Shown here one piece after another: positions 3,714 through 63,485 of a stretch of DNA of 64,000 bases. A program made the position numbers and the translations under genes. This DNA comes from an uncultured Verrucomicrobiota bacterium (GTDB lineage: Bacteria > Verrucomicrobiota > Kiritimatiellia > PWTM01), in NCBI GenBank assembly GCA_964610105.1, contig CAZSUU010000003.1, positions 18,417 through 82,416 on the forward strand. The letters are read 5' to 3'. How positions within the stretch are numbered: the stretch's first letter is position 1; each line of letters begins with the position of its first letter. The notes under the pieces were generated by a model. That model made no database searches. It was not told the origin of the DNA and saw only the letters and a program-made list of their open reading frames with translations.

Positions 3714-3815
3714 GTCGGACTCCCTGCCGGTCGGCCGTCCAGCCGTCTGCCGGCGCTGGTTTTCGTCCCGGGTGCCGCCATCCGCGCTCGGTCACTCCGG
3801 AAAATTTGCCCGAAT

Positions 3816-3844
3816 ACTATAGGAAGAGGCCCCCGCCGGTTCAA
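3816..3844 (-). promoter_or_regulatory. Predicted sigma70-type promoter of the V-ATPase operon (TTGAAC-17-TATAGT on minus strand)
   Basis: Minus-strand sequence cTTGAACcggcgggggcctcttccTATAGTat about 100 nt upstream of atpE ATG. Confidence 0.35.
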
Positions 3845-3988
3845 GCAAAACGACCTGCAGACGCGAAACCGCCAAGCCAATTCCAATTGAACAGGAGGCC
3901 ACGGAGGCATCAGAGAGATCGGTCCAACCCTCGACCGTTGCCGCGGCGCGGTCGGGGACCCCGCCCTACCCGCCACCGGATGAAGGCG

Positions 3989-4801
3989 CTAATCCGCTTC
4001 CCCGTCCGGGGCGCCGGCGGCCTGGCGCCGGCAGATGCCGCGGCGGGAGCCGGCGATGAACTCGGCCCATTCCGACGCCGGTCCCACGGCGAATTCCCGG
4101 CGCAGGGTATCGACCGCCTGCTTCATGTTCAGGCCCGACCGGAAGACGATCTTGAAGGCGCGCTTGACCTCCAGGCGTTCGGCCGGGGAGAGGCCGGCGC
4201 GCCGCATGCCGACGGTATTCAGTCCGGCGATCGTGTTCCGCATCACACCGGCCGTCGTGCAGAAGGGCAGCACATCCATGCCGATGCCGGACAGTCCGGC
4301 CAGCATGGCGAGGCGCCCGATGCGGGTGAACTGGTGAATCACGACGTTGCCGCTGATGAACGCCCGTTCGCCCACCTGCACGTCGCCGGCCAGCAGGGCC
4401 CCGTTGGCGAGGATCACGCCGTCGCCCAGCGTCACGTTGTGCGCGACATGGCTGTTGGCCATCAGGAAGCACCCCCGTCCGATCACGGTGGCGGAGTTCT
4501 CGTGGGTGCCGCGGTGGATGGTCACCCCCTCGCGGATGACGCACTCGTCGCCCACCTCCACGCGGCTGTGGACGCCCTTGAACTTCAGGTCCTGCGGCCA
4601 GTCGGCCAGCACCGCGTGGGCATGCACCCGGCACCGCGCCCCGAGGCGGGTGTGCGGGAGCAGCACGGCGTGCGGGCCGATCTGGCATCCCTCGCCGACG
4701 ATCACGTCCTCGCCGATGACGCAGTACGGACCGACCCGCACGCCGTCGGCGAGGCGGGCGGAGGGATCGATGACGGCCGTGGGATGAAGGATCGAGCTCA
4801 T
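3989..4801 (-). CDS. lpxA: Acyl-ACP--UDP-N-acetylglucosamine O-acyltransferase
   Basis: 270 aa, left-handed beta-helix hexapeptide repeats, MSSILHPTAVIDPSARLADGVRVGPYCVIG... Confidence 0.9.
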   Translation of the reverse strand: MSSILHPTAVIDPSARLADGVRVGPYCVIGEDVIVGEGCQIGPHAVLLPHTRLGARCRVHAHAVLADWPQDLKFKGVHSRVEVGDECVIREGVTIHRGTHENSATVIGRGCFLMANSHVAHNVTLGDGVILANGALLAGDVQVGERAFISGNVVIHQFTRIGRLAMLAGLSGIGMDVLPFCTTAGVMRNTIAGLNTVGMRRAGLSPAERLEVKRAFKIVFRSGLNMKQAVDTLRREFAVGPASEWAEFIAGSRRGICRRQAAGAPDGEAD

Positions 4802-4806
4802 GTTGT

Positions 4807-5577
4807 TCAGACTCCGAAGTCCACCATGCCAGATTCCCGTATGCTGAAGAAACCGCTGCCGCCGCTCCCGAATCCCTCCCGGCCGACGATGACGTGGTCC
4901 AGCACCTGGATGCCGACGATGCGGCCCGCGGCGACCATCTGGCGGGTGATGGCCAGGTCGTCGGCCGAGGGCGCCGGGTCGCCCGAGGGATGGTTGTGGG
5001 CCAGTACGACGCTGGCGCTGTTGGCCCGGATCGCGTGGAGAAACACCTCGCGCTGGTGGATCGGGCTCGAGTCGAGCAGCCCCTTGGTCACCTCGACGGG
5101 GCCCTTCGTGATGAGGCGGTTCTTCTTGTTGAGCGGCAGGATCCAGAACCGTTCGACCTCCGAGGCCACGGCGGAGGGGCGGAGGATCCCGGCCACGTCG
5201 GCCGGAGCGCGGACGCGCGGAGCGTCCATCAGCGACACGTCGCGGGCGCGCCTTCCCAGCTCGAAGGCCGCGATGAGCGTGAGCGCCTTCACCCGCCCGA
5301 CGCTCTTGACCGACATGAGCTCCTGCAGCGAGGCGCGGCTGAGGTCCGCCAGCGTCGGGAACCGGGCCAGGATCTCGGTGGCCAGGTCCAGTACGTTCTT
5401 CCGCCGCATGCCGGTCCGCAGGAGCACCGCCAGCAGCACGTCGTCCCCGGCCGCCGACGGCCCCTTCTCCTCCAGCATCTCGCGCGGCTGGAGGCGGACG
5501 GGCAGGTCCTTGATCCGGAGCGGCGCGGGCGCCTCCGGATAGGCCAGGCCCTGTTCCTTCGGACGGTCGTTCATTCG
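4807..5577 (-). CDS. radC: RadC-family JAB/MPN domain protein
   Basis: JAMM motif HNHPSGDPAPSADD, helix-hairpin-helix N-domain. Start set at MNDRPKEQ; the longer ORF would overlap hflX. Confidence 0.8.
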   Translation of the reverse strand, partial: RMNDRPKEQGLAYPEAPAPLRIKDLPVRLQPREMLEEKGPSAAGDDVLLAVLLRTGMRRKNVLDLATEILARFPTLADLSRASLQELMSVKSVGRVKALTLIAAFELGRRARDVSLMDAPRVRAPADVAGILRPSAVASEVERFWILPLNKKNRLITKGPVEVTKGLLDSSPIHQREVFLHAIRANSASVVLAHNHPSGDPAPSADDLAITRQMVAAGRIVGIQVLDHVIVGREGFGSGGSGFFSIRESGMVDFGV

Positions 5578-12340: not shown

Positions 12341-12445
12341 GGCGGCACCCTTTTTGATCGCGAAAAACGAGCCGTTAGCATAGGTTTACCGGCGTTTTCA
12401 TTTCAAGCACGAACGACGCGGACGCACGCCACGGGAGGCACGGAC

Positions 12446-13798
12446 ATGAACGGAGACCTGAGCGAGCTCGAGCGAACGCTGTCGGACTTCGACCCGGCGA
12501 AGCGCCGCCGCGCCCTGGAGGAGCTGGCCCGCGGCCTGCCGTCGGGCGAGATCCCGGTGGAACCCGCGGGACACGATGTCAATCTCCACTGCCACACCTT
12601 CTTCTCCTACAATCCGTACGGCTACTCCCCCTCCCAGTTCGCATGGCTCGCCCGCCGGAAGGGCCTGGCCGTGGCCGGGATCGTGGACTTCGACGTCCTC
12701 GACGGCGTGGACGAATTCATCGAGGCCGGCCGCCTGCTGGGATTGCGGACCTGCGCGGGCGTGGAGAGCCGGGTCTTCGTGCCGGAGTTCGCGACGCGCG
12801 TGATCAACTCGCCCGGCGAACCGGGCATCGCGTACCACATGGGCGTCGGCATGCCGCGCACGGCCCCCCCGGCGGAGCTGACGCCGTTCCTGAACGGGAT
12901 GCGCTCGACCGCCGCGAACCGCAACCGCACGCTGGTCGAAACGGTGAACCGGCACCTGGCGCCGGCCGCACTGGACTACGACCGCGACGTAGTCCCCCTG
13001 ACGCCGGCCGGCAACGCCACCGAACGCCACATCTGCGAGGCCTATGCCCGGAAGGCCCGGGAGGTCTTCGGCGGGGAGCAGGCCCTCCGGGCGTTCTGGG
13101 TGGAGAAACTCCGCGTCGACGAATCGAAGCTCGACCTGCCGGACGGCCCGAAACTGCAGGCCGCCATACGCTCGGCCACGATGAAGAAGGGCGGCGTCGG
13201 CTACGTGCAGCCCGGGGCCGGTTGCTTCCCGACCATGGCGGAGATGAGCCGGTTCGTCCTCGCGGCGGGAGGCATTCCGACCCTGACGTGGCTGGATGGG
13301 CTGTCCGAGGGGGAGCAGGCGATCGATGAGCTGATGGACGTGGCCGAGGCGTGCGGAGCGGCCGCGCTGAACATCATACCCGACCGCAACTTCACGCCGG
13401 GCGTCAGGGACCACAGGCTGGAGAACCTCTACGAAATCGTCGGGCGGGCCACGCGACGGCGGTGGCCGATCGTGGTCGGCACCGAGATGAACAGCCCGGG
13501 CAACCGGTTCGTCGACCAGTTCGCGTCGCCGGAGCTGCACCCGCTGGTTCTGTACTTCCTGCGGGGGGGCCGGATCGTGTACGCCCACAGCCAGATGCAG
13601 CGGGAATCGGGCATGGGGCTCCTGAGCGACTGGGCGCGCCGCCGTTTCCCCGACGCCGCATCCCGCAACAACTTCTTCGAGACCATCGGCGTCCTGCTCA
13701 AACCCGGCCGCGAGGCGGTGCTGGCGAAGCTCAGCGCCGCCATGACGCCGGGCGAGGTGCTCGACGCGATCCTCGTCGACCGCGGCTGCTGCGGATAG
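12446..13798 (+). CDS. PHP-domain (polymerase/histidinol-phosphatase family) metal-dependent phosphoesterase
   Basis: 450 aa, N-terminal HCHTFFSY motif typical of the PHP fold. Divergent from ileS. ATG at 12446 inside the 1577-aa antisense artefact ORF. Confidence 0.65.
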   Translation: MNGDLSELERTLSDFDPAKRRRALEELARGLPSGEIPVEPAGHDVNLHCHTFFSYNPYGYSPSQFAWLARRKGLAVAGIVDFDVLDGVDEFIEAGRLLGLRTCAGVESRVFVPEFATRVINSPGEPGIAYHMGVGMPRTAPPAELTPFLNGMRSTAANRNRTLVETVNRHLAPAALDYDRDVVPLTPAGNATERHICEAYARKAREVFGGEQALRAFWVEKLRVDESKLDLPDGPKLQAAIRSATMKKGGVGYVQPGAGCFPTMAEMSRFVLAAGGIPTLTWLDGLSEGEQAIDELMDVAEACGAAALNIIPDRNFTPGVRDHRLENLYEIVGRATRRRWPIVVGTEMNSPGNRFVDQFASPELHPLVLYFLRGGRIVYAHSQMQRESGMGLLSDWARRRFPDAASRNNFFETIGVLLKPGREAVLAKLSAAMTPGEVLDAILVDRGCCG

Positions 13799-13841
13799 CG
13801 CCGACGTCAGAAGGCCCGCGAAAAACACCAGCACGTGCGGG

Positions 13842-22482: not shown

Positions 22483-23217
22483 ATGTTGGACAGGGAATCT
22501 TCCGCCGACCGCGAAGAGGTCGCGCGAGACCCCCGACCGCTCGTGCGCCGAACCGGCGGCGACGGCTTTCGGATTGCCACGGAACGGTTCCCTTTGCATG
22601 ATGCGGCCATGGGTGAATCGCTGCCGAGTCAGAACCGTCCCGTGCACCTCGCCCGCCGCGACACGAGCGTGGAGCGTGCGGCGGAGATGCTGAACGTCCC
22701 CCTCGATCCGCTGTCGACCGCCGAAAGGCTGGACTACATCGGCCGCGAGATCGAACTGCTGGAAGGCGCGGTGAATCACGCGCGCCTGGCCGGCCGCTCG
22801 GGCGGCGTGTCGCAACGCGAGAAGGACTTCCTGCACTTCCTCGTGCTGATTCTCGGCAATGTCCAGTCCGCCCACGCCTTCCTCCGGAACCAGGCCCACC
22901 TGGAGTCGGAGGAGCACTCGTTCCTGACGCACTACCTCGGCATCGCGGAGGACGAGGTGGACCTGACGGCCACGATCTTCCGCCGCCGCTCCGAGGACAT
23001 CATCGCCGGCCTCTGGCAACTGCTGCGGATGGCCCACGGCCCCTATCGCATGCTGCAGGCCGAGAACCTGGCGGAGATGGATGAAACCGGCCGGTCGCGG
23101 TACGAAACGGCCTGCGCCCGCGCCCGCGAATACCTGGTGGCGCACTATCCCCTGCCCGCCCCTCCGGACGCCGATCCCTCCCCCGTGACCGTCGGCCCGA
23201 CCGCCCTGCCGCACTGA
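22483..23217 (+). CDS. Hypothetical protein
   Basis: GC3-rich codon usage; start uncertain (ATG 22483 or 22609); no recognisable motif. Confidence 0.4.
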   Translation: MLDRESSADREEVARDPRPLVRRTGGDGFRIATERFPLHDAAMGESLPSQNRPVHLARRDTSVERAAEMLNVPLDPLSTAERLDYIGREIELLEGAVNHARLAGRSGGVSQREKDFLHFLVLILGNVQSAHAFLRNQAHLESEEHSFLTHYLGIAEDEVDLTATIFRRRSEDIIAGLWQLLRMAHGPYRMLQAENLAEMDETGRSRYETACARAREYLVAHYPLPAPPDADPSPVTVGPTALPH

Positions 23218-23251
23218 CGCGCGGGGCCGCGCGCGGCGCGCCCCGCACGAC

Positions 23252-23330
23252 GGCGACCCGCGGTCCAATTCGAATGGAATTCGATCCGCAGTCCACACCG
23301 AGGACGCGGGCAGGATTGCCCGCGGTACGG
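23252..23330 (+). repeat. 3' hairpin element copy 1 (GCGGGC-AGGATT-GCCCGC with conserved 5' flank)
   Basis: Shares ggcgacccg...gtccaca.cga.gacgcgggcaggatKgcccgcgg with 47259-47325 and the hairpin core with 41876-41893; lies in a convergent intergenic region. Confidence 0.5.
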
Positions 23331-23454
23331 GTGCTGGGCGTACCGCGCGCAATCCGTCCGCATGAGGCGCGGTGTTGGGGGGGAAGAGAGAAGGCCCCAC
23401 CGCGCTCGATGGCGGTGGGGCCCTCAAGAGAAGCCGGTCGATCAGCCGCGGAAC

Positions 23455-27113: not shown

Positions 27114-27302
27114 GGCGTCGGCCCTCCCACCGCCCTGTCGCAGCCGCCCCCCCCCGCTGGAGCCGGCTCGATACATGCGGTGTTCCTGCACCGCAGGATA
27201 AGGCGCCCGCGATCAGACGCAAGCCCCAATGCGCCGCGGACCCGGCCATGGGTGCTCCGCCCCTTGCGCGGCGAGGCTATAGACACTACCCTGCTCCCAG
27301 GT

Positions 27303-28445
27303 ATGAGACTCCGGATCGTCATCCTCGCCGTACTGAGCGCCGCGCACACGGCGTCGGCTGCACCGACGGGCGACACCGTCGTCGTGGTCACGGAGCGACC
27401 GCTGGCCGCCCCGCAGATGGAGATGCTCCGGAGTGCCCGCAGCCTGCTGATCATGGTGCCGGGCGTGAGCTCCGGCGATCCTGTTGAACGCCGCCGTCTC
27501 CTCGGGCGGATACGCGCCGGGGGGGGGCACGACCTGGCCGTGTTCTACGACTGGGAATCCGCGAATCCCGCGCGCAGGATCGCCTCGCCCACGGCGGTCG
27601 GCCCCGCGGCCGGGAGGCTGGTCGAGCTCGGGGAGACGTTCCAGCGCGCGACGGGCGACGGGAAGACCCTCGACCTGCTCGCGCACAGCGCGGGCGCCGT
27701 AGTGGTCAACAAGGCGGCGGAGACGATCGTGCGCACCGGCTCGCCCGTTCGGTTCCGGAGGGTCCTGTTCCTGGGCACCGCCCTTTCCGCCGACGAGCCG
27801 CTGGAGGGTCTGAAGACGGTCAGCCGCTCCGTCTTGAACGTCCATTCCGCCCACGACGGCGTCAACCGCAACATCAACGATCGGGAGGGACGCCTCGACG
27901 CCCTCGGACAGCCGGGATATCGCAATGTGCGCATCGACCGGACGCTCGGCGGACGGCTCGTGCGGCACCACACCTTCCTTTCCGACGATCCCGAGAACTG
28001 GCTGCCGTATGTACATTACCTGCGGACCGGTGAGTGGTTCGAGGGCCGACGCGTGAACCTATCGCCCGACGGTTCCGCGGAGGACGTGCACCGGCTGTGC
28101 CTGTGGGTCGGGGCTCATCCCCGGGAACCCGCCGACGCGATCCGCGGGACTCTGCCGACCCTGGTCGGCCATGCGGACCCCGTGCGCGTGCACTACGGGG
28201 TGGTGCTGACCGGCCTGTTGAAGGCGGCGGAGATGGTCCCGGCCCTGAAGGCGCTGCTCGCCGACGCGAAGACGCCCGTTCACGTGCGGCGGGAGGCCTA
28301 CCAGGCGCTCGGCAACCTGGAGGATGGCCGGCACGTCGACTTCCTCCGTGGCGCGCGCGACACCGACCCGGCCTGTGACGAAGTGCTTCGCGATGTGCTG
28401 CGCGAGTTGAAGCGCAAGCGGGTGGAGCCGATCCGCGGTCGATGA
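27303..28445 (+). CDS. Secreted alpha/beta hydrolase (GxSxG = AHSAG)
   Basis: Signal peptide MRLRIVILAVLSAAHTASA; nucleophile elbow LLAHSAGAVV; divergent from the NlpC-like gene. Confidence 0.65.
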   Translation: MRLRIVILAVLSAAHTASAAPTGDTVVVVTERPLAAPQMEMLRSARSLLIMVPGVSSGDPVERRRLLGRIRAGGGHDLAVFYDWESANPARRIASPTAVGPAAGRLVELGETFQRATGDGKTLDLLAHSAGAVVVNKAAETIVRTGSPVRFRRVLFLGTALSADEPLEGLKTVSRSVLNVHSAHDGVNRNINDREGRLDALGQPGYRNVRIDRTLGGRLVRHHTFLSDDPENWLPYVHYLRTGEWFEGRRVNLSPDGSAEDVHRLCLWVGAHPREPADAIRGTLPTLVGHADPVRVHYGVVLTGLLKAAEMVPALKALLADAKTPVHVRREAYQALGNLEDGRHVDFLRGARDTDPACDEVLRDVLRELKRKRVEPIRGR

Positions 28446-28514
28446 GGATGAGGGGACAGGCACGAATCCGTCACCTCGCCTTCTTGGGCACCCATCGCGG
28501 ATCCGCGTGGGGCT

Positions 28515-37037: not shown

Positions 37038-37225
37038 CCGGAGGCGACCCGACACACGCCTCGGCACAGGGGCCCCAGGAGGGATGCGCGGGTCGGAAGG
37101 CGTCCGGGAGGGCATGATCCCCTGACCCGGCGGAAGCCGATGGTGATCCCTGTGGCGGGCTGATATCGCCGGGAGTGAATATTGGTGGCGCTGCAGTTGG
37201 CCTGCGCGTGCCGGATCGTGTCGGT

Positions 37226-41813: not shown

Positions 41814-41875
41814 ACGCGCCGGATCCGATGAGGACAGATCCATCCGGTCCCTCCCTCCGGTCGCCAACGGGAGGC

Positions 41876-41893
41876 GCGGGCAGGATTGCCCGC
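41876..41893 (+). repeat. 3' hairpin element copy 2 (GCGGGC-AGGATT-GCCCGC)
   Basis: Identical core to 23306-23323; 63 nt downstream of the 40494-41813 gene, convergent with pgi. Confidence 0.4.
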
Positions 41894-41981
41894 CGAGAAG
41901 CGCGCGGGTCACCACTCGTCTCCCATGCGATGGCACCGCCCCTCGTGGCGGGCCGGACCATGCGACACCGATGACGAGGCG

Positions 41982-44809: not shown

Positions 44810-45298
44810 TCAGAACACCCACGGCAGCATCCGCCATGTCCGACGCCTGTACGCAACATACTCCCGGAATTCCAATTCCAGGAAGCGCTCTTCGCGGCGA
44901 ATCTTCAACACGAGAACCAGGGCCAGCACGGCCCAGCAGAGGCCCATCCAGGCATCCGGGCGCTGCAGCGCCAGCCCCGTGCCGCCCAGCAGGAGCGCCG
45001 TGTACATCGGATGGCGGATCATGCGATACGGCCCGTCCGTGCGCAAGCGGGTTCCGGGCCTGACGTCCGGCAGCATGTACAACTGGCTCAGCCGCATGGT
45101 CGCGACCGCCCACACGCCCAGGAAGAGTCCGACCGACGCGACCACGCCCGCCGCCGGGCGGACCGGCCACCAGGGCGCGCGGACGAGCATGACGAGCGGC
45201 AACAGGATCTGAGCGCAAACCAACGCCCGCGATCCGGCCGCGAGCGCGGAAGGCGCCGTTCCACCGCCCTGATTTCCTTCCTGTCGCATGTTGTACAC
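44810..45298 (-). CDS. Isoprenylcysteine carboxyl methyltransferase (ICMT/PEMT) family membrane methyltransferase
   Basis: TM helices plus GPYRMIRHPMY...EERFL signature of the ICMT/phospholipid methyltransferase family. Confidence 0.7.
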   Translation of the reverse strand: MYNMRQEGNQGGGTAPSALAAGSRALVCAQILLPLVMLVRAPWWPVRPAAGVVASVGLFLGVWAVATMRLSQLYMLPDVRPGTRLRTDGPYRMIRHPMYTALLLGGTGLALQRPDAWMGLCWAVLALVLVLKIRREERFLELEFREYVAYRRRTWRMLPWVF

Positions 45299-45458
45299 GG
45301 GGGGATGAAGCTGCTAGACTGTATCTCAATCACAGCCGGGATGCACGTTGGGCGCGGGCGTTTCCCGTCATGGGTGCGAGGGACCGTGGGCGGCTGTCGC
45401 CCTGCCGCCGCGGCGCGGCCGGGGACGGCGGCGATGAGAAGGAGTCGGAAGGGACGCC

Positions 45459-45704
45459 ATGAAAACGGACGAGGTACGTGCGCGCATCGAAGACGAGGTA
45501 GCTGAATGGCTGCGCCAGGAAGCGGCAAAGCGCCGATGGTCCACCAGCATGATGGTGCGCCACATCATCTACGCGGCATACGATGCCGACAGCAAACGGG
45601 ACACAGAACAGTCGACGGCAGAGCCGGCAACCAAGCGTGCGGCACAAAGACGCGCAACTGCGATTCCGCCTACGGCAGTGCCTACTTCTTCCGTAAGTGC
45701 CTGA
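45459..45704 (+). CDS. Ribbon-helix-helix (CopG/Arc/MetJ-like) DNA-binding protein, RHH1
   Basis: VRARIEDEVAEWLRQEAAKRRWSTSMMVRHII fits the RHH beta-strand/helix pattern; SD GAAGGAG upstream. The C-terminal 17 codons run into the 77-bp repeat with non-native codons. Confidence 0.5.
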   Translation: MKTDEVRARIEDEVAEWLRQEAAKRRWSTSMMVRHIIYAAYDADSKRDTEQSTAEPATKRAAQRRATAIPPTAVPTSSVSA

Positions 45705-45729
45705 TGCCCTCAGCGCAATGAGAAGTGTC
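45653..45729 (+). repeat. 77-bp imperfect direct repeat, copy 1 (contains a duplicated bioD start, atgagaagtgtc)
   Basis: About 88% identical to 46400-46476; low GC (~50%) relative to the genome; internal agtgcct direct repeats. Confidence 0.6.
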
Positions 45730-45760
45730 CGTCAGGATTCGCCGAAGTCCAGGCGACCGG

Positions 45761-46012
45761 CTATAGCCCCGGTCCCTTGCCCACTTGTCCAGCCGCCTTT
45801 GCATGGACACGTCCATCTGCGCCGACAGTAACACCTTCATGTTTCAGCCTCTCCGATACGCACTCCACCACCAGATCGGTGAGCGAAATGCGCCTCTGAT
45901 GTGCGATCACCCACAGCGCGTCCTTAACCTCCTGGTCGATCCACGCGCTCACAATGCGCTTCCTAGATCCGCGTTGGTTCGGCATATTCGCCCCGATGCG
46001 CAGCCCACGCAC
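45761..46012 (-). CDS. Ribbon-helix-helix protein, RHH2 (paralog of RHH1, convergent)
   Basis: RKRIVSAWIDQEVKDALWVIAHQRRISLTDLVVECVSERL; roughly 35% identity to RHH1 over the RHH core; probable start at MPNQRG (45985). Confidence 0.45.
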   Translation of the reverse strand: MRGLRIGANMPNQRGSRKRIVSAWIDQEVKDALWVIAHQRRISLTDLVVECVSERLKHEGVTVGADGRVHAKAAGQVGKGPGL

Positions 46013-46200
46013 AATGAGTCAAAGAGCGGCGTGGAATGCGGCTTCCCCTGTTGTTCCTTGCCTCGCCGTTCCTCTCGTACTCTGTCCTCATGACGCGCAC
46101 TCTGCGGGGTGTTCTACACCGTGTCAACTCTTCTTTTGATAACTTTTTTTAGACTTTCTTTTGACGCCGTGGTAGGCTCGCTCCGAAGGGGAAAACGGGG

Positions 46201-46443
46201 ATGGCAACACGCACGTTCAGCGGCGGAAGATTCCTAACCACCGCCATCGTTGCGCCGGTCGCGGCCGTCGTGGTGGCCTGCCCGTTCTCGACCACCGACG
46301 TTGACTACGAGACGGACTATGGCCCCATCGGAAAGCCGTCGGAGTACACTGCCCGCAGACTCCGAGGAGAGGGCACCCGCACGGTGCTACGCAATGACAC
46401 GCAACTCCGATTGTGCCTACGACAATGCCTACTTTTCTCGTAA
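46201..46443 (+). CDS. Questionable 80-aa ORF, possibly a decayed duplicate; 3' end runs into repeat copy 2
   Basis: Reasonable codon usage for the first ~60 codons, rare codons inside the repeat; follows an anomalous AT-rich patch (46128-46165). Confidence 0.2.
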   Translation: MATRTFSGGRFLTTAIVAPVAAVVVACPFSTTDVDYETDYGPIGKPSEYTARRLRGEGTRTVLRNDTQLRLCLRQCLLFS

Positions 46444-46476
46444 GTGCCTGATGCCCTAAGCGCAATGAGAAGTGTC
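46400..46476 (+). repeat. 77-bp imperfect direct repeat, copy 2 (overlaps the bioD start codon)
   Basis: cgcaactccgattgtgcctacgacaatgcctacttttctcgtaagtgcctgatgccctaagcgcaatgagaagtgtc; the bioD ATG at 46465 lies inside it. Confidence 0.6.
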
Positions 46477-47181: not shown

Positions 47182-47258
47182 GACGAGGTACGGCGGGGCG
47201 GCTGGGCGCCATGATATCGAATCTCTCGTGCCCATGTCGTACGGCCGTTCGCCCCGAT

Positions 47259-47325
47259 GGCGACCCGATTTCGACTGCGATCCTCAGTCCACAGCGAAGA
47301 CGCGGGCAGGATGGCCCGCGGCAGG
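47259..47325 (+). repeat. 3' hairpin element copy 3 (GCGGGC-AGGATG-GCCCGC with conserved 5' flank)
   Basis: ggcgacccg...cagtccaca.cgaagacgcgggcaggatggcccgcgg is colinear with copy 1; 78 nt downstream of the bioD stop, convergent with the ankyrin gene. Confidence 0.5.
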
Positions 47326-47405
47326 GAGTCCAGGAAAGCGGTGCCGCGCGCCATCCTGCGCGCGATCGGCAGGGCGAGCCGTCCCTGAAGAGCCGCCCCA
47401 GCGAT

Positions 47406-55643: not shown

Positions 55644-55672
55644 TTGACACTGCCCTGCCGTCTCCCTATTAT
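55644..55672 (+). promoter_or_regulatory. Near-consensus sigma70 promoter (TTGACA-17-TATTAT) upstream of the pilus/T2SS cluster
   Basis: caTTGACActgccctgccgtctcccTATTATcc, about 45 nt upstream of the TTG start of pilB. Confidence 0.5.
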
Positions 55673-55716
55673 CCAGCCTCAGGCAGTCGTGCGCACCCGA
55701 ACCGGGGGGCAGCTTC

Positions 55717-57414
55717 TTGACGGCAAACGACGATTACATTGTTGAGATCCTGGAGAGCGTCGGTCTGATCACCCGCCGGCAGGGGGAAGAGGCGCTCCAT
55801 TCCGCCCAGCAGGAAGACAAAGACGTGGTGGACATCCTCGTCCGCAACACGGGTCACACCAAGCTGGAGATCCTGAAGGCATTGGCCACGCAATTCGGGA
55901 TGGACACCGTCGACATCAAGTCCATGGCCATCGGGAAGGAGGTCACCGATCTCGTGCCGGCCAAGGTCGCGCGGCGGTACCGCATCGTCCCGTTCGAGCG
56001 CACGGAGACGGCGCTGCGGGTGGCGCTGAGCGACCCGTTCGACGTCGAGACGCTGGACAGCCTCCGCTACATCCTCAAGATGAACGTCGAAGGCGCGGTC
56101 GCCCTGCGCGAGGACATCGACGTCACGCTCGACCAGTACTATCCCCAGGCGAGCGAGGAAATGGCGACGATGCTGCACGACCTCAGCGAGCAGTCCGGCG
56201 CGCCGGGGTCCTCGCTGACGATCGAGGAGACGGTGACCGACGCGGACGAGCCGATCATCAAGCTCGTGAACCTGATCATCCTCGAGGCCTTCCGCCGGCG
56301 CTCCTCGGACATTCACCTGGAGCCGCTGGAGAAGAAATTCCGCGTCCGCTATCGCATTGACGGCGTGCTGCACGAGGTCGAGAGCCCGCCCCGCCGCCTG
56401 CAGTCGGCGATCATCAGCCGCGTGAAGATCATGGCGAACATGAGCATCGCGGAGAAGCGGGTGCCGCAGGACGGCCGCATCCAGATCAACGTGATGAACC
56501 GCGACCTGGACCTGCGCGTGTCGGTGCTGCCCGCCAACCACGGCGAGACGATCGTCATGCGTATTCTCGACAAGAGCAGCCTCATGCTGGGCCTGTCGCA
56601 GCTCGGTTTCTTCTCCGACGACCAGCAGACCTTCGAGCGGCTGATCGCGCTCTCCGACGGCATCCTCCTCGTGACCGGCCCCACCGGCTCCGGCAAGACG
56701 ACGACGCTGTACGCGTGCCTCAACCAGATCAACAAGCCCGACCGCAAGATCATCACGGTCGAGGACCCGGTCGAGTACGTGATGCCGGGCATCAACCAGG
56801 TCCAGGTCCACAGCGACATCGGCATGACCTTCGCCGCGGCGCTGCGATCGATCCTGCGCCAGGCGCCCAACATCATCATGATCGGCGAAATCCGCGACCT
56901 GGAGACGGCGGAGATCGCCGTCAACGCCTCCCTCACCGGCCACCTCGTCTTCAGCACCCTGCACACGAACGACGCGCCCAGCGCCGTCACCCGCCTGATC
57001 GACATCGGGGTCAAGCCGTTCCTCGTGGCCTCCTCGACCCGCGCGATCATGGCCCAGCGCCTGGTGCGCCGCATCTGCCCGAAGTGCAAGGAGCCCTACA
57101 AGCCGAACGAGAGCGAGCTGCACCTGCTCGGGCCGGCGACGGCGCACGTGGCCGCCGCGGAGCTGTTCAAGGGCAAGGGGTGTTCGGACTGCGCCAACAC
57201 CGGATACCGCGGCCGGTGCGGCATCTACGAGATCTTCGTGCTCGACGACATCGTGCGGCACATGATCAACGACCAGGTCGCCGCCGGCGAGCTCCGCGCC
57301 CAGGCGCGGCGGCTCGGCATGCGCACGTTGCGCGAGGACGGCCTGCGCAAGGTCGTGGCGGGCACGACCACGCTGGAAGAGGTCTTCCGCGTGACCATGG
57401 GGGACAAAGACTGA
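55717..57414 (+). CDS. pilB: Type IV pilus assembly / type II secretion ATPase (GspE/PilB family), paralog 1, TTG start
   Basis: Walker [10 protein letters not shown], Asp box, His box, tetracysteine CPKCK...CSDC, N-terminal GSPII_E_N-like domain. No in-frame ATG upstream of the first conserved block. Confidence 0.9.
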
Positions 57415-58511
57415 TGACACTGCGCGCGGCTGAGATCCAGATGGACGACCTGCTGGGGCTGGTCGTGGATGAAGGCGCCTCCGACCTGCATCTCTCGGTG
57501 GGCAATCCGCCGGTGCTCCGCATTCACGGCTCGCTTCAACCGCTCGATTCGGAGACCCTGGCGCCCGAAGACACCGAACGCCTGATGCGGGCGATCACCT
57601 CCGAGGAGAACATCCAGCGGACGCGCGAGCACGGCGGGTGCGACTTCGGGTTCGGCTTCGGCAAGCGGGCCCGTTTCCGCGTGAGCGTGTTCAAGCAGAA
57701 GGGGTACTTCGGCATCGTCCTCCGCCAGATCCCGTCGAAGATGCTGTCCCTCGAGGAGATCGGCCTCCCGGCGCAGATCAAGGAACTCCTGTACACGCCG
57801 CGCGGCATGGTGCTCGTCACCGGCCCCACCGGTTCGGGCAAGACCACGACCCTGGCGAGCATGATCAACATCATCAACGAGACCCGCGACTGTCACATCG
57901 TGACCGTCGAGGACCCGATCGAGTATTACCACGAGCACAAGAAGTCCATCGTCACGCAGCGCGAGATCAGTGTCGACGTCCCGTCCTTCAGCGAGGCGCT
58001 GCGCCGCGCCCTGCGCCAGGACCCGGACGTGGTGCTCGTCGGCGAAATGCGCGACCTCGAGACGATGGAGGCGGCGATCACGGCGGCGGAGACCGGCCAT
58101 CTCGTCTTCGCCACCCTGCACACGACGGGCGCCGCGCGCACCGTCGACCGCATCGTCGACGCGTTTCCCACGGACCAGCAGGAGCAGATCCGCACCCAGC
58201 TCTCCGCCACGCTCAAGGCCGTGATCTCGCAGCTGCTGCTCCCGCGCATCGACAAGAAGGGCCGCGTGGCGGTGTTCGAGGTCATGATCGTGACCCCGTC
58301 CATCCAGGCCCTGATCCGCGACAACAAGACCTTCCGCATCACCTCCGACATCCAGACGGGGGGGCGCCTGGGAATGTTCACCCTCGACGACCACCTCTTC
58401 AGCCTCTATCAGCAGGGCATCCTCGCCTACGAAGAGATGATCACGAAGGCGGAGGACAAGGACGTCCTTCTCCAGAAAATCGCCTCGCTCGACAAACAGC
58501 GGAAACGGTAG
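57414..58511 (+). CDS. pilT: Twitching-motility (retraction) ATPase PilT
   Basis: [30 protein letters not shown]-like ALIRDNK. ATG 57414 overlaps the pilB TGA; an alternative start is MDDLLGL at 57441. Confidence 0.9.
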
Positions 58512-58520
58512 GACCAGGTC

Positions 58521-60257
58521 ATGGCCGAGAATCCCAGTGAAATGCGGGCATCCGAAGCGAAGGACTATCTGCTGCAGCAGGTCCTGGCGGAGGGCATCAT
58601 CACGGCGGAAGTTGCCGGCGAGGTCATGGAGGAGCACAAGCGCACGGGCAACCCGGTGCGCGAGCTCCTGGTCGACATGGAGATCATGACCGAGGACGAG
58701 CTGCTGGACTTCATCGCCCGGCAGATGGGCACCTACGTGATCGACCTGGTCTCGCAGCCGCCCGACCGCGAGCTCGCCAAGCTGATCCCGGCCAGCGCGG
58801 TCCGCATGTACAACGTCGTCCCCGTCGAGGGCGAGGGCAACGCCATCACCCTGGCGACCGCCGACCTGCTCAGCCCGGAGGTCATCGACGAGCTGGTGTT
58901 CGTGCTCACGCGCGACATCAGCTACGTCATCGCGAAGTCGAGCGACATCCGGCACGTGATCAAGGACCTGTACGGCGACGTCAAGGACTCGGTCGGCGAC
59001 ATGCTCTCCCAGCTCGAGGCCGAGCTGCAGGAGGCGGGCGACATCCTGGACTACAACCGCGCCAAGGCGGGCGACGTGATCGACCTGGAGCAGATCGCCA
59101 ACCAGGCCCCCGTGGTCCGGTTCGTCAACCTGGTGCTGTACCAGGCCGTGCAGGACCGCGCCTCGGACATCCATTTCGAGCCGTTCGAGAACGAGTTCAA
59201 GATCCGGTACCGGGTGGACGGCGCCCTCTACGAGATGGCCCCCCCGCCGAAGCAGCTCGCCCTGCCGGTCATCTCCCGCGTGAAGGTCATTTCCGGCCTG
59301 AACATCGCGGAACGCCGCCTCCCGCAGGATGGCCGCATCAAGCTCACCATCGCGGGCCGGACGATCGACTTCCGCGTTTCCACCCTGCCCACCCAGTTCG
59401 GCGAGAGCGTGGTGCTGCGTATTCTCGACCAGAGCACGGTCCAGCTCGACCTGGAGAACATCGGCCTGCCGGACGACATCTACGAGACGCTGACGTTCGA
59501 CATCAGCAAACCCAACGGCATCATCGTGGTGACGGGCCCCACGGGGTCCGGGAAGACGACGACCCTCTATGCCGCGCTGAAACGGTTGAACACCATCCAG
59601 GACAAGCTGCTGACGGCGGAGGATCCCGTCGAGTACGACATCGAAGGGATCATGCAGATCCCGGTCCACGAGGGCATCGGCGTCACGTTCGCCCGCATCC
59701 TCCGGTCCTTCCTGCGCCAGGATCCCGACATCATCCTCGTCGGCGAGATCCGCGACAAGGAGACGGCCGAGATCGCCATCCAGGCCTCGCTCACCGGCCA
59801 CCTGGTGTTCAGCACCCTGCACACCAACGACGCGGCCGGCGCCATCACCCGCCTCATCGACATGGGCGTGGAGCCGTTCCTCATCGCGTCCACCATGGAG
59901 GCCATCCTCGGCCAGCGCCTCGTGCGGACCATCTGCCCCCACTGCAGGCAGTCCTACCAGCCCGAGAAGGACGTGCTGGACATGCTGAACCTCAAGCCCG
60001 ACCAGGTCGGCGATCGTCCCTTCCACTTCGGCGCCGGCTGCAAGCAGTGCAACGACACCGGCTACCGCGGCCGGCGGGGCATCTTCGAGTACCTGCGCAT
60101 GACCGAGCCCGTGCAGGCGCTCATCAACCAGCGCAAACCCACCCTGGTGATCCGCGACAAGGCGGTGGAGATGGGCATGCGCACCCTGCGCGAGGACGGC
60201 ATCCGCTGTATTCTGGACGGCTACACGACCGTCGAGGAAATTTTGAAGTATACTTAG
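58521..60257 (+). CDS. GspE/PilB-family secretion ATPase, paralog 2
   Basis: 578 aa, same motif set as paralog 1 ([15 protein letters not shown]...CKQCNDTGY); about 45% identity by eye. Confidence 0.9.
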   Translation: MAENPSEMRASEAKDYLLQQVLAEGIITAEVAGEVMEEHKRTGNPVRELLVDMEIMTEDELLDFIARQMGTYVIDLVSQPPDRELAKLIPASAVRMYNVVPVEGEGNAITLATADLLSPEVIDELVFVLTRDISYVIAKSSDIRHVIKDLYGDVKDSVGDMLSQLEAELQEAGDILDYNRAKAGDVIDLEQIANQAPVVRFVNLVLYQAVQDRASDIHFEPFENEFKIRYRVDGALYEMAPPPKQLALPVISRVKVISGLNIAERRLPQDGRIKLTIAGRTIDFRVSTLPTQFGESVVLRILDQSTVQLDLENIGLPDDIYETLTFDISKPNGIIVVTGPTGSGKTTTLYAALKRLNTIQDKLLTAEDPVEYDIEGIMQIPVHEGIGVTFARILRSFLRQDPDIILVGEIRDKETAEIAIQASLTGHLVFSTLHTNDAAGAITRLIDMGVEPFLIASTMEAILGQRLVRTICPHCRQSYQPEKDVLDMLNLKPDQVGDRPFHFGAGCKQCNDTGYRGRRGIFEYLRMTEPVQALINQRKPTLVIRDKAVEMGMRTLREDGIRCILDGYTTVEEILKYT

Positions 60258-60272
60258 TTGGGGGCCATCATC

Positions 60273-61550
60273 ATGCCGACCTTCGTCTATATCGCGAGCG
60301 ATGCCAAGGGCAAGGAGACCCGGGGCACGGTCGATGCCGAGAACCAGAACGCCGCCATCGGGCGCCTGCGCGAGAAGGGGCTCTTCCCGACGCAGATCGC
60401 CGAGGCGACCGCCGCGGGAAAAGCCGGAACGCCCCGCGCGCCCACGAAGGGGCAGGGGCTGAAGAGGGAGATCAAGCTGCCGACCATCGGGGGGCGGCGG
60501 GTGAAGACCAAACAGTTGATGGTCGTCACGCGCCAGCTGGCCACGCTGATCGACGCCGGGCTTCCCCTGCTCCGCGGCCTGCAGGTGCTCCACCGGCAGG
60601 AGAAGGCGCCGGGGCTGAAGAGGGTCCTGGCCGATCTCGCCGAATCGATCCAGTCCGGCAGCACCCTGGCCGAGGCGATGTCGCACCACCCCAAAGTCTT
60701 CAACAAGCTCTACGTCAACATGGTGAAGGCCGGCGAGGTCGGCGGCGTGCTGGACGTGGTGCTCGTCCGCCTGGCGGAATTCATGGAGAAGATGCAGAAG
60801 ATCCGCAACAAGGTCGTCAGCGCCATGACCTACCCCGCCGTCGTCCTGTGCGTCGCGCTGGCGATCATGTACTTCCTGCTGACCAACATCGTGCCGAGAT
60901 TCCGGGATATCTTCACCGACCTTCTGGGCAGCGAGGACAAGATGCCGGCGCTGACCAAGTACGTGATGAGGACGAGCACCGCCATCGCCTCCAACACCCC
61001 GCTGGTGATCGGCGGCATTGTGGCGCTCGTGGTCCTGGTCAAGCTCCTGGGCAAGACGAAGGCCGGACGGGCCGGCATCGACAAGTTCAAGCTCCGGCTG
61101 CCCATCTTCGGCGAGCTGCTGCACAAGACCGGCATCGCGCGCCTCACGCGGACCCTGGGCACCCTTCTTTCCTCCGGCGTTCCCATCCTGCAGGCGCTGA
61201 CCATCGTCCGGGAGACGGCCGGGAACGAGGTCATCGCCCGCGGCGTCGGCCTGGTCCACGACAGCGTGAAGGAGGGCGAGAACATCGCCCCGCCGATGGA
61301 GGCGTCGCGCATCTTCCCGCCCATGGTGATCGGCATGGTGGAGGTCGGCGAGGAAACCGGCAAGCTGCCCGACATGCTCATGCGCATCGCGGACACGTAC
61401 GACGATGAGGTCGACAACACCGTCGCCGCCCTGAGCTCCATCATCGAGCCCTTGCTGATCGTGGGCCTCGCGATCATGGTCGGCACCATCGTCGTCTCGC
61501 TGTTCCTCCCGATGATCAGCATCATCGGCGGCCTGAGCGCCCAGAGCTGA
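60273..61550 (+). CDS. pilC: Type IV pilus / T2SS inner-membrane platform protein (PilC/GspF)
   Basis: MPTFVYIASDAKGKETRG canonical start, two GspF repeats, three TM helices. Confidence 0.9.
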   Translation: MPTFVYIASDAKGKETRGTVDAENQNAAIGRLREKGLFPTQIAEATAAGKAGTPRAPTKGQGLKREIKLPTIGGRRVKTKQLMVVTRQLATLIDAGLPLLRGLQVLHRQEKAPGLKRVLADLAESIQSGSTLAEAMSHHPKVFNKLYVNMVKAGEVGGVLDVVLVRLAEFMEKMQKIRNKVVSAMTYPAVVLCVALAIMYFLLTNIVPRFRDIFTDLLGSEDKMPALTKYVMRTSTAIASNTPLVIGGIVALVVLVKLLGKTKAGRAGIDKFKLRLPIFGELLHKTGIARLTRTLGTLLSSGVPILQALTIVRETAGNEVIARGVGLVHDSVKEGENIAPPMEASRIFPPMVIGMVEVGEETGKLPDMLMRIADTYDDEVDNTVAALSSIIEPLLIVGLAIMVGTIVVSLFLPMISIIGGLSAQS

Positions 61551-61686
61551 CGGCGGCGGGCACGGGCGCACGGACGGGTGCGCGCGGGCCCGTCCGGGAC
61601 GGCGGCCGCCCGGAGGTCGCCGAGGAGTCGGAGCGTGGTTTGTCCGGGTTTGTGTTTGATCGTATACTTGGTACGGAGAGCGCGCC

Positions 61687-62241
61687 ATGAAACGATGTCG
61701 ACCGGATCGCAAGGCGTTTACGTTGATCGAGCTGCTGGTGGTGATGGGCATCATCGGCATCCTGATTGCCCTGCTCTTCCCCGCGGTGAAGGCCATCCGG
61801 TCCGCCGCCATGAAGGCCGAGGCCCAGCACGGGGTCAAGTCCCTGGAGACGGCCATCAAGTCATACCTGGTGGACTACGGCCGGTATCCGCTACAGGTCT
61901 CCGGCACGGAGGCCCAGCATTTGTACACGGTGGGCGAGTACGCTCAGCTCGTCAATGCCCTGAGAGGCATTCACACCGAGCAGGCGAGGAGGGACAACCC
62001 CAAGAAGACCGTCTACCTGGACCTCGCCGAGAACAAGCTTCTGGACGGCCGGATGGTCGACCCCTGGGATCAGCCGTACCAGGTGTGCGTGGATTACGAT
62101 CAGGACAATCAGATCACCATCGCACCGCGGCAGAGCGAGATCGTACGGGGTCACAGTGTCGTGGTGTGGTCGATGGGCGAAGACAAGCTCTCGACGACCG
62201 CATCGAATCGCCTGGACGACATCATCTCGTGGGGCAACTGA
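61687..62241 (+). CDS. Pseudopilin / type IV pilin-like protein
   Basis: Prepilin N-terminal methylation motif KAFTLIELLVVMGIIGIL. Confidence 0.8.
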   Translation: MKRCRPDRKAFTLIELLVVMGIIGILIALLFPAVKAIRSAAMKAEAQHGVKSLETAIKSYLVDYGRYPLQVSGTEAQHLYTVGEYAQLVNALRGIHTEQARRDNPKKTVYLDLAENKLLDGRMVDPWDQPYQVCVDYDQDNQITIAPRQSEIVRGHSVVVWSMGEDKLSTTASNRLDDIISWGN

Positions 62242-62284
62242 GCGGGCGCGGTCAAGGGGCCATCAACCGACTGGGAAGGCAGGG

Positions 62285-62968
62285 ATGAAAGCGGATACAC
62301 GAGGGCGGAAGCGTCGGCGGGGGTTCACGATGGTGGAACTCCTCGTGGTGATCGGCATCCTCGGCATGCTGCTGGGCATCGTCACGATCGGGTGGAACGC
62401 CATCGCGGCCGGAAGCAAGGTCCAGTCGGCGGTCATCCAGCTCCGCGGGACCATCAGCTGGGCGCGCCAGTACGCGATCACGCACAGGGACAAGGTGTAC
62501 ATCGTCTTCCCCGAGCTGTCCCCGAATACGATCTACCCGACGTACCCCGCGACCAACTGGGCCAACATCATGCCCTACCAGGCCTACTCCGTATTTGTTC
62601 CGGGCAAGGGCTATATCCGCGAGTGGCAGTTCCTGCCCAAGGGCGTCGTCTTCGATCCCACGTATGTGGCGACCACAGAACATCTGAAGGAGAGGGCGGG
62701 CATCAATGTGTTCAGCAAGACGGAATACACGCGATTCACCGTCGCCCAGCCCGGGACCACCAACGTCGCGCCACCTGAACTGGCCTGCATTGCGTTCCTG
62801 CCGAACGGACGGTTGAACCAGCTCGGCGGCACCGAGGTGGGCCTGTATCTGCGGGAGGGATCGGTCAACGAGGCCATTCCGGGCCCGCCGCTGTTCGTGC
62901 CGAGCCGCACGGTCTACTGCCTCAGTATCCGGCCGCTGACCGGCCAGATCCGTTTGTGGGAGTTCTGA
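62285..62968 (+). CDS. Pseudopilin
   Basis: RRGFTMVELLVVIGILGML prepilin motif; start ATG 62285. Confidence 0.75.
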   Translation: MKADTRGRKRRRGFTMVELLVVIGILGMLLGIVTIGWNAIAAGSKVQSAVIQLRGTISWARQYAITHRDKVYIVFPELSPNTIYPTYPATNWANIMPYQAYSVFVPGKGYIREWQFLPKGVVFDPTYVATTEHLKERAGINVFSKTEYTRFTVAQPGTTNVAPPELACIAFLPNGRLNQLGGTEVGLYLREGSVNEAIPGPPLFVPSRTVYCLSIRPLTGQIRLWEF

Positions 62969-62969
62969 C

Positions 62970-63485
62970 ATGAAGACGATGCGTCGGGGCCGCAGAGGAT
63001 TCACCCTCATCGAGGTGGCCATGGCCATGCTGGTCGTCAGCGTGGGCATCATGGCGGCCTTCGCGATGTTCCCGCAGGGGCTCGACCAGGGTAAGGCCGC
63101 GGTCGAGGACACGCAGGCCGCCCAGTTCGCGGAATGGGTGTTCGACGGATACCGCGGCTTGTCGACCCGCTACGCGTGGTCCCTCTGGCCCACCGCACCG
63201 GTCCAGCTGCCCGGCGCCGCCAATTTCAACTCCGCGCAGACGACGCCCTGGGTGAGGGCAAGCGTGAATTCGAACATCGTCACCGTCTTCCGCGCGTTCC
63301 GCCAGGTCAGCGAGTCGACGGCGGGTATCGACGCGCGCGAGATAGCGCTTCGCTACAATCTCGCGCTGGACAGGGGGAATCGATCCGTCGGCTTGACGCT
63401 GCGCGTATGGCCGGGAGAGTACGGCAACACGGACGCCACGAACGCCGTCATGTTCTACACGGAAATACTCAATACCAGCTTATGA
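62970..63485 (+). CDS. Pseudopilin
   Basis: RRGFTLIEVAMAMLVVSVGIMAAF prepilin motif. Confidence 0.75.
   Translation: MKTMRRGRRGFTLIEVAMAMLVVSVGIMAAFAMFPQGLDQGKAAVEDTQAAQFAEWVFDGYRGLSTRYAWSLWPTAPVQLPGAANFNSAQTTPWVRASVNSNIVTVFRAFRQVSESTAGIDAREIALRYNLALDRGNRSVGLTLRVWPGEYGNTDATNAVMFYTEILNTSL

Follow-up and report, generated by a model that had tools for sequence, protein, structure and literature searches.

The stretch of DNA analysed here, referred to as the window, is 64 kb long and has a GC content of 67.7%. Its genes were called by GC3 periodicity, and their content is that of an ordinary chromosome. They encode a V/A-type ATPase subunit (ATP-synt_ab), IleRS, ExbBD, TPR proteins and glycoside hydrolases, as well as pgi, AHAS, GlgC and components of type II/IV secretion systems. 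Homologues of the 540-aa PGI protein put the organism with Kiritimatiellae/Verrucomicrobiota MAGs, the best non-conspecific match being 77% identical. A plasmid origin was considered for the window and gave no match, no tRNA or tmRNA genes were found in it, and Pfam scans of its approximately 40 ORFs returned no Y1/RAYT transposase (PF01797). A cluster at 55648-63485, unrelated to the repeat described below, encodes two T2SSE/MshE-type ATPases, T2SSF and several proteins with a prepilin-type N-methylation motif, as in type II secretion or type IV pilus-like systems. The strict GC3 filter left four stretches of 1.1-1.8 kb each without a gene (3792-5570, 12386-13841, 27213-28514 and 57415-58511). 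Logan/ENA calls place genes in at least two of them; 3792-5570 contains RadC and an ORF of 270 aa, and 12386-13841 an ORF of 450 aa.

A short GC-rich hairpin recurs in the gaps between converging genes. In a pattern search of the 64-kb window, the 18-mer GCGGGCAGGATKGCCCGC matched exactly at three sites, all on the plus strand (unit A of copies 1 to 3, Table 1), where dinucleotide-preserving shuffles predict 0.05 matches. The occurrence noticed in the first-pass annotation is thus real and non-random. The described setting, 60-120 nt past a plus-strand stop codon and facing a convergent minus-strand gene, was also found. Unit A starts 89, 63 and 121 nt past the plus-strand stops at 23217, 41813 and 47181, and the opposing minus-strand genes have their stops at 23455, 41982 and 47406. 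Copy 1 (gap 23218-23454) separates a 244-aa gene without family match from a LamG/PEP-CTERM-like gene, copy 2 (gap 41814-41981) a 434-aa gene without family match from pgi, and copy 3 (gap 47182-47405) a gene for a 238-aa BioD-like protein from an ankyrin-repeat gene, the minus-strand gene being named second in each case. The 18-mer is therefore present in three of the four convergent gaps of the window, and none of the three loci lies inside a CDS or a divergent gap. Of roughly 11,900 intergenic nt, about 817 belong to convergent gaps, so that three random intergenic placements would all fall in them with p about 3e-4; this value is approximate, because the genes in the uncalled stretches make the intergenic length too high. 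The common orientation of the three copies weighs little, as GC skew is negative over the whole window, which places it within one replichore.

Two subtypes of the unit can be distinguished. Unit A is the 18-nt GCGGGC-AGGATK-GCCCGC, with a GC stem of 6-7 bp and a loop of 4-6 nt. Unit B reads GCGCGC-AGGATK-GCGCGC on the minus strand (GCGCGC-MATCCT-GCGCGC on the plus strand). What separates the subtypes is one base pair, between positions 4 and 15, which is G:C in A and C:G in B. Each unit is consequently self-complementary, and the long stem that A forms with an inverted B contains two mismatches. Such complementary stem changes have been described for REP heterodimers of differing subtypes (PMC3733652).

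Copies 1 and 3 are imperfect inverted repeats of 56-62 nt, in which unit A makes up the 5' arm and an inverted unit B the 3' arm, with 20 nt between the arms in one and 26 nt in the other. The inverted repeat detected in copy 3 measures 23 nt at 91% complementarity, and its unit B was retrieved in the pattern search as a minus-strand relative of the 18-mer with two mismatches. The corresponding relative in copy 1 is a deleted version of unit B. The statement that the hairpin always lies on the plus strand thus holds for A-type units, and its inverted relatives (23345-23361 and 47346-47363) lie on the minus strand. What had been taken for a second downstream GC hairpin is really this inverted partner, which pairs with the 18-mer into one long hairpin. 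The unit is found both ways, and the earlier argument from fixed orientation and an asymmetric loop to a strand-specific RNA function finds no support here.

A flank of approximately 45-50 nt that opens with GGCGACCCG lies upstream of unit A in both copy 1 and copy 3. BLAST aligns 44 nt of the two copies at 91% identity, with the block of GGCGACCCG further upstream; the extended similarity of these two copies had been recognised correctly. Downstream of unit B, nothing common to them was found. Flank, unit A and inverted unit B form a composite of about 110-120 nt, which is asymmetric, as the 5' flank has no inverted counterpart. Copy 2 is a lone unit A, and its likeness to the others is confined to the 18-19-mer and a weakly similar stretch of about 17 nt upstream. 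The four letters before unit A are GACG, which is CGTC read in reverse complement, in copies 1 and 3 and GGCG in copy 2. Beside the B units stand CATG/GATC, and the inner GTAC/GTGC/CTGC are themselves paired. The 9-mer GGCGACCCG is not enriched in the window (5 found vs 4.1 expected), and three of its five occurrences lie on the plus strand in convergent gaps. One of these, in the fourth convergent gap, which has no 18-mer, is possibly a decayed family member or a coincidence. A and B types together amount to five units at three loci in 64 kb, and the Logan contigs add none in the 9.5 kb past the right end of the window.

Table 1 Coordinates of the repeat units and associated features in the window
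Feature	Position	Strand	Basis
Copy 1 flank module (GGCGACCCG ... CGATCCGCAGTCCACACCGAGGAC)	23252..23305	+	BLAST, 44 nt at 91% to copy 3
Copy 1 unit A (GCGGGC-AGGATT-GCCCGC)	23306..23323	+	Exact pattern match; 5' arm in minimum-energy fold
Copy 1 inner stem GGTACG/CGTACC and 9-nt apical loop	23324..23344	+	Inverted repeat, folds
Copy 1 unit B, inverted, with 12-nt deletion (GCGCGCAATCC^GTCCGC)	23345..23361	-	Comparison with strain L263
GGCGACCCG 7 nt past a plus-strand stop, fourth convergent gap, no 18-mer	37043..37051	+	Weak
Copy 2 singlet, unit A (41876-41893) and ~17 nt of weak flank, no inverted partner	41859..41893	+	
Copy 3 flank module (GGCGACCCG ... CGATCCTCAGTCCACAGCGAAGAC)	47259..47301	+	Alignment to copy 1
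Copy 3 unit A (GCGGGC-AGGATG-GCCCGC)	47302..47319	+	Exact match, inverted repeat
Copy 3 inner stem GGCA/TGCC and 18-nt spacer loop	47320..47345	+	Folds, inverted repeat
Copy 3 unit B (minus strand GCGCGC-AGGATG-GCGCGC), 3' arm	47346..47363	-	2-mismatch match
Target site CAGGA (minus strand) in the loop of unit B of copy 3, duplicated (5 bp) around the IS in sample ERZ25038401	47354..47358	.	Ends of homology in L120/L264

Folding favours the composite over the single unit. For copies 1 and 3, the long A/B hairpin has the lowest energy of all folds, with -41.3 and -47.6 kcal/mol as RNA and -24.7 and -29.5 kcal/mol, respectively, with DNA parameters (overall range -41 to -48 kcal/mol as RNA); the small 18-nt hairpin is not the favoured fold in either. 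In copy 1, a G.U wobble occurs on the plus strand in the main stem and another on the minus strand in the outer stem. Folding with covariation, suggested earlier as a check, gave no covariation signal. RNAalifold on four versions of the element returned an unfavourable covariation term (+2.1) with one double change. The K position of the loop (T:A in copy 1, G:C in copy 3) was considered as a case of covariation between the arms and dismissed, as strains L263 and L260 break the pairing with G opposite A.

Orthologous contigs of sister strains, obtained by exact-protein look-up, made it possible to follow the three copies. Copy 2 is present in a 97% strain (L120). In two relatives of about 94% identity (L258/L259), both genes flanking copy 2 align, the gap between them is unrelated (215 nt vs 168 nt in the window) and the 18-mer is absent. 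The replaced gap in L258 contains GC hairpins of its own. The whole gap has been replaced between strains, and no clean excision or insertion footprint is visible. Copy 3 is kept in three strains at about 95.7% (L260-L262) with 8 of its 62 hairpin positions changed. This divergence of 12.9% falls within that of the other gap DNA (9.5-14.7%), as against 2.1-3.5% in the flanking CDS. Six of the eight substitutions are non-compensatory, and the single compensatory change turns a C:G pair of the inner stem into T:A. In L260, copy 3 has ceased to fold best as the long hairpin (-31.8 vs -47.6 kcal/mol), and only the small A hairpin remains. Strain L263 (98.5%) has 66 extra nt in copy 1, which consist of a 30-nt spacer, a second flank end and a second A unit, the last 13 nt of the flank having been duplicated along with the unit. 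Its copy 1 is an A-A-B trimer with a whole unit B (GCGCGCAATCCTGCGCGC+AATCA), whereas in the window this copy is an A-B dimer whose B has lost 12 nt.

Taken as a whole, the comparison shows a repeat that turns over fast and evolves neutrally, and not a conserved locus-specific RNA signal. The family changes quickly through duplication and deletion of units, point decay and wholesale replacement of the gap. The RNA-level function favoured at first does not agree with a hairpin that diverges at the neutral intergenic rate and whose pairing is broken in one strain, nor with the absence of copy 2 from the orthologous gap of a relative at about 94%.

One unit has also received an insertion sequence. 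Contigs L120 and L264, both of sample ERZ25038401, approach copy 3 from opposite sides, and their homology to the window stops at 47358 and 47354. In this sample, an IS1634-family element of about 2 kb (L120:1902-3891, L264:5755-6027) sits in unit B of copy 3, where 5 bp of the loop, CAGGA, are duplicated on either side of it. Its transposase ORF (L120:2364/2532-3839) matches NF033559 with 183 bits, and its ends are CCTACATTCCGC.../...GCGGAATGTGCGA, with imperfect terminal inverted repeats around ACATTCCGC. Targeting of palindromes by the element was considered and rejected, as there is one such insertion only and the other IS junction in L120 has no adjacent unit. On the far side of the IS, L120 and L264 run into different loci (DUF169/DUF6788 vs a 149-aa ORF and SerRS), which suggests several IS copies that led either to rearrangement or to mis-joined assemblies.

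Rfam 15 had no matches at gathering thresholds in the window, and at E up to 10 only generic hairpin noise appeared, with scores well short of the threshold. No U-tract terminator was found in the three gaps on either strand, and no sigma-70-like promoter beside the elements. Terminator-like sites across the window do not exceed the shuffle expectation, so the absence of a U-tract is uninformative for this organism. Near copy 1, a separate perfect GC hairpin (23393-23422, GGCCCCACCGC...GCGGTGGGGCC) is followed on the minus strand by TTCTCTCTTCCCCCCC. It is independent of the repeat, is kept with few changes in L263 and is a plausible terminator of the LamG-like minus-strand gene.

Several other element classes were examined and set aside. 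An integron attC site does not fit the 3' ends (...GTCCGCATGAGG and ...GCGCGCGATCGG), which have no GTTRRRY, nor the housekeeping genes next to them. The copies are missing the sequence features of a MITE with terminal inverted repeats and target duplication, of an uptake sequence and of an sRNA with promoter. A tRNA-derived flank was discarded, as no tRNA or tmRNA was found, and a cassette based on paralogy of the adjoining genes without Pfam match was discarded since those genes have no similarity to one another.

The type of repeat that agrees best with these observations is the REP/BIME family described in E. coli and Pseudomonas (Di Nocera et al. 2013, PMC3733652). Like these, the repeat has a short GC-rich palindromic unit with subtypes set apart by complementary stem changes. 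REP units are imperfect palindromes of about 20-40 bp that can form a stem-loop. The units of the family stand alone, pair up as inverted dimers with 20-30 nt between them or gather in small clusters, at extragenic sites downstream of ORFs with a preference for convergent gaps. Unit number varies between strains, and an IS lies inside one unit. The published criteria for REP dimers likewise include a preference for convergent or unidirectional gaps downstream of ORFs (PMC3733652). Similarities also exist with the REPINs associated with RAYT transposases (Bertels and Rainey 2011, PMC3116915), in which a pair of inverted REPs folds across its spacer into a long hairpin as ssDNA or RNA, and decayed-looking singlets and tandem cluster variants occur. 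Decay of REPIN doublets to singlets has been described (PMC3116915), and the L260 orthologue of copy 3 shows it. The palindromic subtypes, the singlet, dimer and cluster forms, the position in convergent gaps and the doublet decay together point to a REP/REPIN-like repeat. We therefore put the probability that the three sites are members of a lineage-specific, REP/REPIN-type (BIME-like) family of extragenic palindromes at roughly two in three (about 0.68). The REP/BIME-like candidate named in the first-pass annotation has fared best, in view of the two palindromic subtypes, the singlet, inverted dimer and trimer forms, the extragenic 3'-end sites and the fast turnover between strains. In type, the repeat is an ordinary, already known one among bacterial repeats.

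There are nonetheless differences from the described families. A clear unpaired tag like those of the GTAG and CGTC superfamilies (PMC3733652) is not evident; no clean GTAG or CGTC tag is found, copy 2 having GGCG in place of the GACG of the other two. CGTC-1 to CGTC-4 have 8-9-bp stems with complementary A/T at positions 1-2, a 4-5-nt loop and a CCA-like tail (PMC3733652), whereas the stems in the window are all G/C and no CCA tail occurs. The all-G/C stems exclude these described families. The AGGATK loop (4-6 nt) and the conserved flank of about 45-50 nt that travels with unit A also set the family apart from REP/BIME. REPIN spacers measure about 40-70 nt (PMC3116915), as opposed to 20-26 nt here. 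In contrast to a textbook REPIN, the composite is asymmetric with its one-sided 5' flank, and neither excision footprints nor, in the 64-kb window, a RAYT were found; in REPIN-RAYT systems this gene is present once and is flanked by the REPs. The low number of units seen locally also counts against a REP, because high copy number across the genome, with tens to hundreds of units, is a defining feature of REPs. So does the near absence of the family-specific 23-mer from JGI metagenomes. Among the hosts described (PMC3733652), the nearest is Opitutus terrae (Verrucomicrobia), with GTAG repeats, and none is Kiritimatiellae-like.

The most probable of the alternatives is a selected RNA element. 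Hairpin-only ("I-shaped", U-tract-less) terminators have been proposed for high-GC bacteria, as have bidirectional terminators between convergent genes, and a stable GC hairpin without U-tract in such a gap resembles both. The repeat could accordingly be a U-tract-less, possibly bidirectional, intrinsic terminator or a 3'-UTR stabiliser needed by the converging transcripts. Every copy lies 43-121 nt downstream of stop codons in a convergent gap, and the hairpins are very stable. With U-tract terminators at shuffle level, the organism may use other signals, and the GC hairpins in the unrelated L258 gap could mean that such gaps generally need them. The plus-strand wobble of copy 1 and the one compensatory change (C:G to U:A in the RNA) also speak for it. 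Against this stand a sequence not kept at orthologous loci, the neutral rate of hairpin divergence with its mostly non-compensatory substitutions, the loss of the long fold in L260 and the unfavourable covariation term. The strand evidence from the wobbles of copy 1 is conflicting, there is no U-tract, and the minus-strand neighbour of copy 1 comes with a separate hairpin and T-rich tail. Moreover, terminators of these two kinds are locus-specific, and termination needs no common primary sequence at unlinked loci; the repeat has the same sequence at such loci, is neutral and is dispensable at an orthologous one. A selected RNA element is thus unlikely.

Less probable still is a DNA binding site, either an inverted repeat of half-sites of about 20 bp for a dimeric protein (a nucleoid-associated protein, a gyrase/IHF-like factor or a regulator) or uptake-signal-like inverted pairs. 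E. coli REPs bind gyrase, IHF and Pol I, the two similar half-sites of the window dimers are inverted, the AGGATK loop is better conserved than random, and the 18-mer is found again in other lineages. The half-site spacing, however, is not constant, copy 2 is a lone half-site, a promoter context is missing and half-sites decay neutrally between strains. The density is far under that of uptake sequences, no copy lies in a coding region, and outside the lineage a control scan gives only mild loop-specific enrichment. Such a site is therefore very improbable. Chance similarity, or one local segmental duplication of a terminator region without any family, could in principle leave two full copies and a partial one, GC-rich palindromes being common at 68% GC and the bare 18-mer arising by chance in many genomes. 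This explanation is scarcely credible given the excess of exact matches over expectation, the distance of 5-18 kb between loci whose flanking genes are unrelated, and the subtypes, dimer/trimer forms and strain-level gain and loss of units, which reflect ongoing dynamics and not one old duplication.

If the REP/REPIN-like interpretation is correct, the A and B arms would fold as one long hairpin in single-stranded DNA or RNA, and singlets such as copy 2 would be truncated or decayed remnants of the composite. The turnover between strains suggests mobility. As non-autonomous DNA, the family would spread or have spread; the likeliest agent would be a Y1/HUH (RAYT-type) enzyme acting in trans and recognising the hairpin on single-stranded DNA, with recombination as the alternative route. 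Persistence in convergent gaps may be explained by insertions there damaging neither promoters nor coding sequence. Incidentally, the stable GC hairpin may block read-through or protect the 3' ends of both converging transcripts. A terminating or mRNA-stabilising effect is plausible, although conservation does not support it.

Confirmed genome-wide, the family would extend REP/REPIN-type palindromes to Kiritimatiellota-like PVC bacteria, for which no description was found in the literature, and would offer a compact example with two subtypes, heterodimers and strain-level gain and loss of units. In practice, annotators should be wary of labelling such hairpins as conserved terminators or sRNAs. 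In metagenomes of the lineage, the elements would also be sites prone to assembly breaks and IS insertion and of use for strain typing. The family alone opens no new biological question; only the recurrence of its hairpin across phyla could.

A genome collection (596 Gb) was scanned with the degenerate pattern GCGSGCAGGATNGCSCGC, and the matches listed were mostly coding GCGCGC...GCGCGC chance matches in unrelated taxa. A Chthoniobacter MAG (L039, 2.9-kb contig) has the 18-mer as two inverted pairs (1335-1386 and 2041-2123), which bracket a minus-strand ORF and have GTAAC/GTAAT on their outside. One of the pairs fills a whole convergent gap of 54 nt. Such an arrangement resembles that of REP dimers, here in a second PVC lineage, and counts in favour of the REP/REPIN-like reading. 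The pairs differ from the window dimers, however, in their opposite relative orientation, the GTAAY tags outside and the unrelated flanks. In MAGs of Bryobacterales (at least about 10 among the matches listed), an exact GCGGGCAGGATTGCCCGC is the last of 2-4 hairpins. The element consists of GTGGGG (or GGAGGG), one to three variable GC hairpins, GCGGGCAGGATTGCCCGC and CCCCAC (or CCCTCC), the outer hexamers being complementary. This multi-hairpin form occurs on contigs L010, L029, L042, L043, L049, L056, L058, L064, L103 and L110 and on L126 (IMG/VR). It spans many species and lies mostly downstream of ORFs. It had no Rfam match, and no description of the 18-mer elements of either Bryobacterales or Chthoniobacter was found in the literature; a search for the 18-mer sequence itself also found nothing. 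The Bryobacterales elements resemble the window family in the same 18-nt extragenic hairpin, often at gene 3' ends, whereas their flanks are unrelated.

The recurrence of the 18-mer across phyla is probably convergent. In a viral scan, it turned up in 19 viral contigs in assorted unrelated contexts. With the stem kept and the tetraloop left free, a control scan gave GGAT in about 5% of cases vs 0.8% expected, partly owing to one phage family, and this enrichment is too mild for the hairpin to be read as a universal motif. The family-specific 23-mer had one match in JGI metagenomes, in a different context (5' of a gene) and probably by chance. It seems improbable, then, that GCGGGCA-GGAT-TGCCCGC is, other than by convergence, the palindromic unit of repeat families in Kiritimatiellae-like, Chthoniobacter and Bryobacterales (Acidobacteriota) lineages. 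If it were, this would imply either that an enzyme which recognises the hairpin, RAYT-like or of another type, moves horizontally with its specificity unchanged, or that a host factor reading the hairpin is conserved. A cross-phylum class of REPs would then exist, contrary to the view of REP/REPIN-RAYT systems as lineage-bound and vertically inherited.

The strain comparison also brought out a difference next to the BioD-like gene. About 1 kb (45439-46464) between a PEMT-like gene (44810-45313, minus strand) and the BioD-like gene (from 46465, plus strand) is missing in L120 and L260/L262, and L120 has 42 nt in its place. In the window, the coding signal of this stretch is low, and a small plus-strand ORF (45459-45704) has a weak match to a FitA-like RHH antitoxin (E = 9e-4). 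The stretch may be a strain-specific insertion, such as a small toxin-antitoxin-like or remnant mobile module.
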